64,000 nt of DNA from Candidatus Kaiserbacteria bacterium. GTDB taxonomy: Bacteria > Patescibacteriota > Minisyncoccia > Phycocordibacterales > UBA2100. Location: assembly GCA_016186765.1 (NCBI GenBank), contig JACPLD010000003.1, forward strand, positions 6,121 to 70,120, in the 5' to 3' direction. Of the stretch, positions 61,022 to 62,452 are shown one piece after another (positions within the stretch are counted from its first letter, which is position 1; each line of letters starts with the position of its first letter). The position numbers were made by a program, and so were the translations under genes. Under the pieces are notes generated by a model. That model did no database searches and was not told the DNA's origin. It worked only from the letters and a program-made list of their open reading frames with translations.

Positions 61022-62452
61022 TTAACTTCGATTCACGACGATGTGCGGTGCCTGACCATTTGCCGACTCTGCGAACGTCATCGAATCCTTCGGAGAAACA
61101 ACTGCGGTGTGCGCGACCGGAAGTGCCTCAGGAACGCGAGATGCGCGAACTGGGGCAAATGTCTTCGGAGCCACCGTCTGCTTGAACATCGCGGGCGCCT
61201 TCTCGATGCGAACACCGAACATCCGACGACTACCGAAGAGAGAGTGCGCGAAGTTCGCTGCGCCGCCCCTGTAGTAGATCACGAGGTAGGCGGAAGCGAG
61301 CGCGAAGGAAAGGAGGCCGAGCCAGTAGATGGCGTTGCCGAAGGCGCCGAGATCGAAGCCCGTGTATGGAATTTGCGAGAGTGAGACGTAGGGGTACGCA
61401 CCGGAGACGTTCACGTAGGTCGTGCAGTTTCGCGTTCCGCCGTAGCCGGAGATTGTGAGCGTGTAGGTGGTCGAGACATTCGGGCGAACCGCAAGTGTGC
61501 TGTTCGGAGCGACAATGCCGATCCCATCGGAGAGCCATGCACTCGTTGCACCGTAGCTCGTCCAGCTAAGTATCGCTGCCTGGCCGTTCTGAATGTAGCT
61601 GGGAGAGGCCGTGATCACACAGTAGAGACCTTGCGCGGGGTAGATCGGTGCAGGAGGAATCGGCTGGGGGTACGTGTACTGCACAAGCGGCTGAGGCGTC
61701 GCAGGCGCAAGCGTCGTCGAATTGAAGCTGCTGTTGATCGAGTTGTCGATGTTGTTCACGCTCGTGTTGCAACTGTTCCCGACGCAGGTGTTGGTGGTGA
61801 GGTTCGAAGAAGGAGTCGTGATGATTGGAGGCTGGGGCTGCGGCCGCGGAGGCGGGTAGCTAATCGGCGGAGCAATGACCGGAGGCGCGGAAGCATACCT
61901 CGGGGCCGTCACTGGCATCGGTGCAGAAGGGAACGGGCGGGGGGGCGACGAGAAGCTCTGACAGGTGACACACGGAGGAGTAGAGTAGCTCGGGTAGCTC
62001 TGCGCGACATCATAGACATCATAGACGTCGTACACATCGTAGACGTCGTAGACATCATAGACATCATAGACATCGTATACGTCATACGTGTCGTAGTAGC
62101 CTAGATTATCCCCGTAGGAGTCGTAGTACCCGAGGTTATCTCCGTAGGAATCGTAATAACCAAGATTTTCTCCGTACGAATCATAGTAGCCGAGGTTGTC
62201 TCCGTAGGAGTCGTAGTAGCCCAGATTGTCGCCGTACGAATCGTAGTAGCCAAGGTTGTCGCCCCATGTGTCGTAGTAGCCAAGATCACCGTACGAATCG
62301 TAGTACCCAAGGTTGTCTCCGTAGGAGTCGTAGTAGCCCAGATCTTGTGCACGGCTCAACTGAGGTAGAACCAAGGTTACCGCGACGAGAACAGCAATAT
62401 ACAAAAAAGCACTACGAGCCACCGCAATGTTCTGTGAGAATGAATAATTCAT
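61022..62452 (-). CDS. secreted Tyr-rich tandem-repeat protein with a signal peptide, Pro-rich linker, globular region and C-terminal TM helix (putative cell-surface protein)
   Basis: Signal peptide ending ...LSRAQ. About 10 DNLGYYDSYG decapeptide repeats, then 9 YDV repeats. A P-rich PRPFPSAPMPV...PPRPQPQPP linker follows, then a C-terminal hydrophobic IYWLGLLSFALASAYLVIYY segment. Confidence 0.7.
   Translation of the reverse strand: MNYSFSQNIAVARSAFLYIAVLVAVTLVLPQLSRAQDLGYYDSYGDNLGYYDSYGDLGYYDTWGDNLGYYDSYGDNLGYYDSYGDNLGYYDSYGENLGYYDSYGDNLGYYDSYGDNLGYYDTYDVYDVYDVYDVYDVYDVYDVYDVYDVAQSYPSYSTPPCVTCQSFSSPPRPFPSAPMPVTAPRYASAPPVIAPPISYPPPRPQPQPPIITTPSSNLTTNTCVGNSCNTSVNNIDNSINSSFNSTTLAPATPQPLVQYTYPQPIPPAPIYPAQGLYCVITASPSYIQNGQAAILSWTSYGATSAWLSDGIGIVAPNSTLAVRPNVSTTYTLTISGYGGTRNCTTYVNVSGAYPYVSLSQIPYTGFDLGAFGNAIYWLGLLSFALASAYLVIYYRGGAANFAHSLFGSRRMFGVRIEKAPAMFKQTVAPKTFAPVRASRVPEALPVAHTAVVSPKDSMTFAESANGQAPHIVVNRS
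62004..62095. repeat. tandem 9-nt coding repeat array (GTCGTAGACATC-type units) encoding (YDV)x9
   Basis: Seen directly in the sequence. Confidence 0.85.
62091..62345. repeat. tandem 30-nt coding repeat array (about 8-10 units of GTCGTAGTAGCCCAGGTTGTCTCCGTAGGA-type)
   Basis: Seen directly; the units differ by a few synonymous or conservative changes. Confidence 0.85.

Follow-up and report, generated by a model that had tools for sequence, protein, structure and literature searches.

Which kind of protein does an uncultivated bacterium of the candidate phyla radiation (CPR) display on its surface, and by what means is it held there? This question is raised by a gene at positions 61022-62452 of a 64,000-nucleotide stretch of DNA, referred to as the window throughout, from a Candidatus Kaiserbacteria bacterium (GenBank assembly GCA_016186765.1, contig JACPLD010000003.1, positions 6,121 to 70,120 of the forward strand). 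CPR bacteria, or Patescibacteria, are thought to live attached to other cells, and to our knowledge almost nothing is known about their surface make-up and the determinants of their partner specificity. The gene is real and intact and encodes a cell-surface protein of this Kaiserbacteria-type organism, a member of a family that is undescribed and is delimited by the C-terminal half. As judged from sequence comparisons, the chances are somewhat better than even that the protein is processed by a sortase, anchored to the cell wall and diversifying. This assessment builds on an invariant pentapeptide, IPYTG, in front of a membrane-spanning helix and on a sortase gene that accompanies the family in nearly all related loci.

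The open reading frame (ORF) on the minus strand is a complete coding sequence with an ATG start, which specifies 476 amino acids (aa) and a stop codon, and its N-terminus resembles a signal peptide, the latter as reported in a first-pass annotation of the window. A protein search returned 139 homologues with a best E-value of 1.5e-150, all of which are annotated as hypothetical, and the named ones among them come from Candidatus Kaiserbacteria or Parcubacteria only. Hence, the gene is real. Since repeats can mislead assemblers, an assembly artefact or a pseudogene has to be weighed as an explanation, but its probability is negligible: the 476-aa ORF is intact and has full-length homologues, and 176 full-length members of the family are intact as well. 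Moreover, the longest exact repeat within the array measures 34 nucleotides (nt), so that ordinary reads would reach unique sequence, and a collapse during assembly, being unlikely, was rejected.

From its N- to its C-terminus the protein comprises a signal peptide, a decapeptide array, nine YDV triplets, a Pro-rich linker, a part rich in Asn, Ser and Thr, a helix at aa 370-393 and a further 83 residues. The corresponding features, with their basis in brackets, are the following.

61022..62452, minus strand: complete coding sequence, 476 aa and stop codon (ORF and homologue search)
62348..62452, minus strand: signal peptide, aa 1-35, with predicted cleavage after SRA (A35) (read from the sequence; helix 9-27 in the AlphaFold2 (AF2) model)
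62081..62344, minus strand: decapeptide array, aa 37-124, nine units (D)NLGYYD[ST][YW]G (Tandem Repeats Finder (TRF), translation, unit comparison)
62006..62086, minus strand: YDV x9 triplet array, aa 123-149 (TRF, unit comparison)
61787..62005, minus strand: Pro-rich linker with a CxxC pair, aa 150-222, 22 Pro in 72 residues (composition; predicted local distance difference test (pLDDT) <50)
61625..61786, minus strand: Cys/Asn motif NTCxGNSCNTxxxNxDNSINxSFN and PVQY segment, aa 223-276 (conservation in alignments)
61403..61624, minus strand: immunoglobulin (Ig)-like beta-sandwich, aa 277-350, between the conserved C278 and C343 (AF2, Foldseek, conserved columns)
61358..61372, minus strand: IPYTG, aa 361-365, inside the conserved YVSLSQIPYTGFDxG (invariant columns in 93 sequences)
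61274..61345, minus strand: transmembrane helix, aa 370-393, followed by YRGG (AF2 helix; mean hydropathy 1.94 over 18 residues)
61025..61273, minus strand: basic, presumably cytoplasmic tail, aa 394-476 (alignments, AF2, composition)
about 61025-61093, minus strand: end motif of the tail, KDSM...G.aPrIVvxRx, with a predicted beta hairpin at aa 456-461 / 470-475 (AF2)

The N-terminus (MNYSFSQNIAVARSAFLYIAVLVAVTLVLPQLSRA|QD), as read from the sequence, has an n-region with R13 and a hydrophobic core at aa 15-29, followed by SRA|QD. Overall, this architecture is consistent with the secreted, membrane- or wall-anchored surface protein that the first-pass annotation had proposed, and its nine YDV triplets and Pro-rich linker are found as well. 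As for the about ten DNLGYYDSYG repeats that it had listed, the repeat stands but the number does not, as the array consists of nine units, of which seven have 10 aa and are of the DNLGYYDSYG type while the other two have 9 aa. Similarly, the hydrophobic anchor exists as the helix at aa 370-393, but its supposed C-terminal position had to be given up because 83 residues follow, while the supposed 150-aa Ser/Thr/Asn-rich beta region persists as a region but not under that description, since it comprises the conserved Cys/Asn motif and the Ig-like domain. Two features had gone unmentioned, namely the long conserved tail, presumably cytoplasmic, and the wholesale replacement of the repeat type between close relatives that share a conserved anchor half.

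The family is recognizable by its C-terminal half. Using the query protein, searches of Pfam and NCBIfam gave no match at E <= 1 and a search of PDB sequences gave none either, in agreement with the first-pass annotation, which had not recognised the repeat as a described family, and Pfam applied to 93 members yielded nothing consistent apart from sporadic low-complexity matches (Extensin_1, Pentapeptide_2). In the literature neither the family nor an IPYTG signal was found described; there are general statements only on sortases and sortase-motif proteins in CPR bacteria, according to which more than half of the CPR genomes encode members of the sortase family and CPR surface proteins often carry sortase motifs (PMC6744442, PMC5220378). 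A profile of the C-terminal 125 residues matched 824 clusters at E <= 1e-3 and 318 at E <= 1e-10 among 1.84 billion representatives, and the match always closes at the last residues of the protein. In a scan of 185,579 species genomes, 118, mostly labelled Kaiserbacteria, encode a relative of this module; the 78 loci listed either bear Patescibacteria-type labels (Kaiserbacteria, Paceibacterota, Parcubacteria and similar) or are without a taxon label.

Conservation within this half is seen in several blocks. An Ig-like block with two Cys (YCxITASP...LSW.S.GATSA.LSDGIG...YTLTV.G.GGT.TC) corresponds to aa 277-350, for which AF2 predicts seven to eight strands at a pLDDT of about 95; Foldseek retrieved Ig/PKD-like domains at probability 1.0, with E-values of only about 2e-3 and no sequence-model match, and an Ig-like or PKD-like beta-sandwich is assigned to this segment only. 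The next block, PYVSLSQIPYTGFDxGxxGNAxYW, leads into the helix, past which YYxGG is found, and a variable basic tail is followed by the conserved extreme C-terminus (K)DSMxxxxSxxGxxPRIVIxRx. In the query the tail contains 7 R and 4 K versus 1 D and 3 E. Across the family the tails have a median length of 83 aa and a net charge of +3, with the end motif in 194 of 214 members, and the terminal hairpin (456-461/470-475) is predicted at pLDDT 71-83.

What, then, argues for a sortase? In the 93 aligned sequences, L358, Q360, I361, P362, Y363, T364 and G365 are invariant, and IPYTG occurs in 213 of the 220 family proteins fetched. The order of IPYTG, four residues, the helix and then usually R or K (directly after the helix in 164 of 214 members) gives the segment the layout of a sortase sorting signal. 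The query accordingly combines a Sec signal peptide (from the sequence reading and the AF2 helix 9-27), an [LI]PxTG-type pentapeptide near the C-terminus (aa 361-365) and a hydrophobic membrane-spanning stretch right after it (aa 370-393), which are the properties expected of a sortase substrate. The first-pass annotation had recommended comparing the C-terminus with sortase-type signals, and this comparison proved fruitful both in the invariant pentapeptide four residues before the helix and in the gene neighbourhood. A hidden Markov model (HMM) built from the sortases of related loci was applied to the 43 related loci with at least 9 kb of upstream sequence, and a same-strand sortase gene was found upstream in 41 of them, the median distance being 3.9 kb.

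Seven related contigs share one gene order: gyrB, a CARDB-like membrane protein on the opposite strand, the sortase (PF04203, in all seven contexts), small unknown genes spanning 3-10 kb, one to three IPYTG proteins, thrS in convergent orientation, a small ORF and dnaE. The alignment of the sortases displays a conserved His-Ser motif (HSS/HTS), TCD and an Arg or Ser-Arg motif (ARF/ARY/SRY/SRW). They fit none of the classes A-F, the best match being class E with 48 bits against a cut-off of 160. The window keeps the right-hand end of this arrangement (dnaE 55936-59172, thrS 59597-60934), and its small upstream ORFs 63327-63689 and 63695-63973 have homologues in the related locus L003. Hence, the expected position of the sortase gene lies beyond base 64000. 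A scan for [LIVMAF]Px[TSA]G plus a helix, covering eight related loci and the window, identified only family members among the called genes, including paralogues with five Ig-like domains or 1006 residues, and three further matches in unannotated stop-to-stop frames.

A number of observations weigh against a sortase substrate and are gathered here. In a classical sorting signal as defined in PMC4617865, the hydrophobic stretch is followed by no more than a few positively charged residues at the end of the protein; in the query, R395 lies past the helix, but the C-terminus is not short and comprises 83 residues with a conserved end motif, and in 50 of 214 members R or K is lacking directly after the helix. 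The curated anchor models PF00746 and TIGR01167 match neither the query at E <= 1 nor any of the 93 members at E <= 0.01. Furthermore, the conservation round the motif (SLSQIPYTGFDxG) is broader than in usual LPXTG signals, and the block could equally mark a structural juxtamembrane element. With regard to the neighbourhood, the window ends 1.5 kb upstream of the gene, so that the syntenic position of the sortase is outside, and its motif and ORF listing, its proteins not having been scanned with sortase models, contains no obvious sortase candidate. In addition, thrS is an equally constant neighbour (74 of 84 loci) and the genes between the sortase and the IPYTG gene are highly variable; for both reasons, the linkage may in part be inherited synteny.

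Several of these observations lend weight to the principal competing explanation, an uncleaved bitopic membrane protein, in which IPYTG would be a juxtamembrane structural motif while the tail and its hairpin bind an intracellular partner for positioning, signalling or coupling of envelope and cytoplasm. Besides the lack of an anchor-model match, the extension of the conserved block beyond the pentapeptide and a sortase linkage that is possibly synteny alone, this explanation accounts for the length of the tail (median 83 aa), the prevalence of its end motif, which always ends one residue past Arg, and the predicted hairpin. On the contrary, an invariant [IL]PxTG pentapeptide four residues before a helix is the arrangement of a sortase substrate, a sortase with an intact catalytic triad is encoded in nearly all related loci, and no other candidate substrate emerged in about 1.2 Mb of related loci, for which the motif scan covered eight loci. 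Taken together, a bitopic protein is regarded as doubtful, albeit the most serious of the competing explanations, and the sortase-substrate reading is preferred.

Under the sortase-substrate reading, the following course of events can be envisaged. The Sec signal peptide would be removed after A35, and the helix at aa 370-393 would hold the chain in the membrane with its N-terminus outside and the 83-aa basic tail in the cytoplasm, an orientation suggested by the excess of R and K in the tail according to the positive-inside rule. Subsequently, the dedicated divergent sortase, whose gene lies a few kb upstream in relatives, would cleave IPYT|G and attach Thr364 to the wall; the expected substrate of the Kaiserbacteria sortase would be the SLSQIPYTGFDLG peptide. 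As a result, the Ig-like domain would be placed beside the wall and the Pro-rich linker would serve as a wall-spanning stalk, with the polyanionic Tyr-rich array at the tip as an exposed, selected and outward-facing surface. The stub from Gly365 to the C-terminus with its conserved hairpin might stay in the membrane and, more speculatively, take part in sortase docking, stub clearance or signalling.

Is the array at the tip a recent product of repeat expansion? The first-pass annotation had pointed to a high nucleotide identity between the units and deduced recent expansion or ongoing recombination; the unit comparison contradicts recent expansion and does not support ongoing recombination. 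The 30-nt units share a mean pairwise identity of 80% (range 67-93%) and differ per pair by 4.9 synonymous versus 0.9 non-synonymous codon changes. Units that encode exactly NLGYYDSYG have a nucleotide identity of 0.83 within the query gene, 0.78 within the relative L003 and 0.80 between both genes, as compared with 0.79 expected for two independent back-translations of this peptide with the codon usage of the source genome. Hence, synonymous sites are essentially randomised while the peptide is held constant, and three relatives present the same picture, with 71-78% TRF matches despite near-perfect peptide repeats. Accordingly, the decapeptide array is old and maintained by selection on the peptide, without recent expansion. 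In the query arrays, TRF detected periods of 30/60 nt and 9/27/36 nt with 76-84% matches (76-80% being given for the comparison of decapeptide units), and the 9-nt YDV units share 84% mean nucleotide identity; YDVYDV-like runs also stand at the end of the array in several homologues. Matches are better over longer periods (60 nt in the query, 120 nt in L003) than over the single unit, which suggests older growth via duplication of blocks. A recent transfer of a cassette between the query lineage and L003 was considered and rejected, as the units encoding the identical peptide are at random nucleotide identity (0.80 versus 0.79).

The array of the query is devoid of basic residues and carries a charge of about -27. 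With the family alignment, AF2 modelled the whole protein with a pLDDT below 50 between residue 30 and about residue 270, and the array modelled alone with an alignment of arrays of the same type showed neither secondary structure nor a fold (pLDDT 36, or 36-40 over both AF2 runs). According to these models the array is probably disordered on its own, and folding on cations, on ligands or by self-association is possible. The Ca2+-binding or adhesive fibre suggested in the first-pass annotation would require instead that the repeats form a regular structure such as a beta-roll or solenoid-like fold, arisen by recent expansion of a 30-nt unit. The periodicity of Asp, Gly and aromatic residues every 8-13 residues in the absence of basic ones is in keeping with it, and the peptide is strictly conserved inside each array, as if every unit took an equivalent place in a structure or in binding. 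However, RTX (HemolysinCabind) or other repeat-family matches are absent from the 93 members, AF2 proposed no secondary structure with either alignment, recent expansion is excluded by the saturation of synonymous sites, and unit sequences that are not conserved family-wide argue against one common fold. In sum, positive evidence for a Ca2+-binding fibre was not obtained and such a fibre is improbable. Tyrosine sulfation, Tyr-linked glycosylation and dityrosine cross-linking of the DY-rich units were considered and are speculation, as neither a supporting gene nor other evidence was found.

Comparison across the family reveals how such arrays change. A clear tandem array right behind the signal peptide is present in 149 of 176 full-length members, beginning a few residues past an AxA-like site (median position 46), with a median period of 11 aa (mode 10) and a median of 4.9 copies. 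Aromatic residues make up 24% of it (background 7%), acidic ones 17%, Gly 15% and basic ones 0% (background 16%). The unit sequences are nearly all different, e.g. DNLGYVDTWG, TGWYDSYDYYTPD, GSDQPFYYD, GYDLGYLDG, GFDYGPYGGGDV and WGDTTYNDG, and unrelated units are found even in pairs of homologues whose C-terminal 300 residues are 89-96% identical (P0038/P0043, P0030/P0042, P0012/P0015). At the DNA level, P0038 and P0043 are 89% identical over the 3' 950 nt, and no similarity is detectable over the 5' 540 nt or the upstream region. Conversely, the array of the query is 79% identical in protein sequence to that of P0014, while their C-terminal parts are only 42% identical, and the NLG[YW]xD[ST]YG type is spread over the family in at least 10 members, i.e. 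the query and nine others that are C-terminally 36-69% identical to it. The copy-number variation foreseen by the first-pass annotation does occur in near-identical relatives, since P0061 and P0070 agree at 490 of 494 positions and are separated by a clean indel of two units, and P0064 and P0068 differ by four whole units; unit-number variation was observed in relatives only, the query having no strain-level relative. Given the replacement of unit types, the peptide identity within arrays and the unit indels, the tip is modular: peptide identity is kept within an array, the type is swapped between lineages and the copy number drifts between strains. Such a pattern would be expected if diversifying or balancing selection acted on a determinant that faces ligands, hosts or phages, and adhesion via aromatic and acidic contacts or cation binding are possible activities.

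Differences by whole units between near-identical proteins, together with surface attachment, are also what a length-variable stalk of the Periscope type would display, in which the array would do no more than determine how far a functional domain stands off the cell, and the class is defined for surface proteins with expanding and contracting repeat tracts (PMC9704523). Yet the units are peptides of 7-16 aa with DNA identity at the random-codon level and no predicted fold, and the array itself forms the distal tip, leaving no further domain for it to present, which makes a stalk of this kind very improbable.

Building on the sortase-substrate reading, a more far-reaching version is put forward tentatively and is itself rather unlikely. 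It combines a tripartite sortase signal, i.e. IPYTG, helix and cytoplasmic hairpin, whose stub is functional, with exchangeable repeat-type cassettes as specificity determinants. In that case the stub may dock to the CPR sortase, report surface display or act as a clearance tag, and the repeat types may represent long-lived alternative alleles or cassettes exchanged between Kaiserbacteria lineages, which may set the specificity of host-cell attachment or of phage escape.

Beyond these points, several observations concern the family and its locus. Tandem paralogues, two to three per locus, occur in 22 of 84 loci (e.g. L003 10005-11792, L007 11306-12451 and 12987-14759, L008 14279-17299) and share the module of IPYTG, helix and tail with different ectodomains, among them a Gly-rich stretch with five Ig-like domains and a protein of 1006 aa; the PRIVIxR end is lost in some of them. 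In many homologues the Pro-rich linker of the query is replaced by 9-12 glutamines (P0004, P0016, P0021, P0028, P0030, P0038, P0043 and others), a run encoded by a mixed CAG/CAA repeat in L001 (8532-8563), and it seems that the linker is kept in composition and length rather than in sequence.

Between the conserved sortase gene and the IPYTG gene lies a hypervariable island that encodes small proteins, either secreted or in the membrane (L001-L008 and 76 further loci; e.g. L002 2950-8000); its counterpart in the window is 62453-64000 and beyond. Most island families are confined to 1-13 of the 84 species loci, and HicA, AbiEii, PaaX-like or YkuD (L,D-transpeptidase) proteins are sometimes included. 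Three small ORFs of this region lie upstream of the gene on the same strand and are without library match: a Cys-containing secreted protein with homologues in six related loci, a membrane protein (PWWG...RIHIPVDAVVEPN) and the C-terminal portion of a TGELIPVxNVPP-motif protein, which reaches the region of the window edge, the latter two with homologues in two loci (e.g. L003 6068-7132). Immediately behind the sortase gene and abutting it, a small secreted protein (L002 3615-4085 (+), L001 4045-4644 (+); homologues in 22 loci) consists of 20-30 hexapeptide repeats of the form [RH][PA]V[DNST][IV][GA], e.g. GRPVNVGRPVTVGRPVTIGYPV, and has no library match, no transmembrane helix and no LPXTG. 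The CARDB-like protein is N-terminally anchored and always divergent from the sortase gene (L002 1723-2769 (-), L003 1006-2034 (-), L001 1973-3145 (-)), with homologues in 42 loci. Its C-terminal tail is rich in Tyr, Asn and Gln, with a median of 16% Tyr in the last 50 aa, and often ends in ...YPY[AQTV]Y; it constitutes a second Tyr-rich surface protein of the conserved cluster. On the other side of the gene, thrS is short in the window and in most relatives, encoding 405-445 aa with tRNA-synt_2b and HGTP_anticodon only, as compared with a 581-aa form with a faint tRNA_SAD match in L005 (the window, L001, L002 and L005 were compared); the N-terminal editing/TGS part of threonyl-tRNA synthetase seems to be missing in most of the lineage. 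The flanking features in the window are given below.

63695-63973, minus strand: ORF for the protein with the TGELIPVxNVPP motif
63327-63689, minus strand: ORF for the membrane protein
62608-63048, minus strand: ORF for the Cys-containing secreted protein
62499..62526, minus strand: promoter-like site (TTGACA, 16 nt, TAAAGT), 47 nt upstream of the ATG, with 10 of 12 consensus positions matched (consensus match only)
60943..60957, both strands: GC-rich hairpin, with T-runs on either strand, where thrS and the surface-protein gene converge, a likely bidirectional terminator
59597-60934, plus strand: thrS

On the minus strand the stem of the hairpin at 60943..60957 is followed by TTTTTGTTTT, and it probably terminates both thrS and the surface-protein gene.

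In general, the interest of the family lies in its range and its setting. At least 118 species-level genomes encode a member, its locus is fixed, next to a dedicated sortase of no known class, and among the called genes in the loci sampled no other protein with a sortase motif was seen. The family is therefore a candidate for the lineage's principal surface protein anchored to the wall. With respect to type replacement between close relatives, strict peptide conservation within arrays and change of copy number between strains, the outward-facing tip resembles a determinant of specificity or evasion. The locus is more informative than the first-pass annotation had supposed. Cleavage of the protein, if it occurs, would widen the known forms of sortase signals to those with a long conserved tail behind them, and if the version with a tripartite signal and exchangeable cassettes were true, the locus would be a readable host-range marker for uncultivated CPR episymbionts.

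To which known systems, finally, can the protein be compared? Gly/Asp-rich repeats of about nine residues with a large hydrophobic position are shared with the RTX nonapeptide (GGxGxDxUx) that forms a Ca2+-binding beta-roll, but RTX membership was rejected because the unit DNLGYYDSYG does not match the consensus, no HemolysinCabind match was obtained in Pfam and no beta-roll is predicted. Cell-wall or choline-binding repeats (CW_binding_1, YG) of about 20 aa were discarded as well, given a period of 10 aa in the query and the lack of a PF01473 match. Low-complexity repeats rich in Tyr, Gly, Ser and Asp are known from resilin (GGRPSDSYGAPGGGN) and the oligopeptide repeats of Sup35 and PrP, with which the array shares, by analogy only, a period within 8-15 aa, aromatic residues spaced by Gly, Ser or Asp and predicted disorder. 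There is no homology to them, the array of the query is strongly acidic without basic residues and belongs to a bacterial surface, and there is no evidence in it for cross-linking or amyloid. Periscope proteins are surface-attached and vary in tandem repeat number between strains, their repeats being folded domains of very high DNA identity that form rods (PMC9704523). Variation of repeat number between close strains is shared by relatives of the query (P0061/P0070, P0064/P0068), but the query has units of 10 aa with 80-83% nucleotide identity as against 79% at random, and Periscope identity, which requires folded and DNA-identical repeats, was rejected.

A closer correspondence exists to the LPXTG sorting-signal proteins of Gram-positive bacteria (PF00746, TIGR01167), with which the query shares the signal peptide, [IL]PxTG before a helix, usually a basic residue after it, a wall-proximal Pro-rich region and, in its relatives, a sortase gene nearby. 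IPxTG variants are known from pilin substrates such as pneumococcal RrgB (IPQTG). The query differs from the LPXTG proteins in its conserved 83-aa tail, predicted to be cytoplasmic, in place of few terminal basic residues, in an invariant Tyr at position x of its family with likewise conserved flanks (SLSQ...FDxG), in the absence of an HMM match, in related-locus sortases outside classes A-F and in the organism, a CPR bacterium with a poorly known envelope. Streptococcal M proteins, in turn, are coiled coils with a hypervariable distal N-terminus and a conserved wall-anchored C-terminus. Mosaic evolution, in which a conserved anchor half is combined with a distal part that is unalignable between close relatives, as well as variation of repeat number are common to both, whereas the distal part of the query is an aromatic and acidic array of short peptides, probably disordered, instead of a coiled coil. 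Groundwater and soil settings offer no host immune system, so that selection would have to come from host cells, phages or competitors. By analogy, the protein is best compared in function to an LPXTG-type wall-anchored protein with a hypervariable distal end, as in M-protein-like adhesins.

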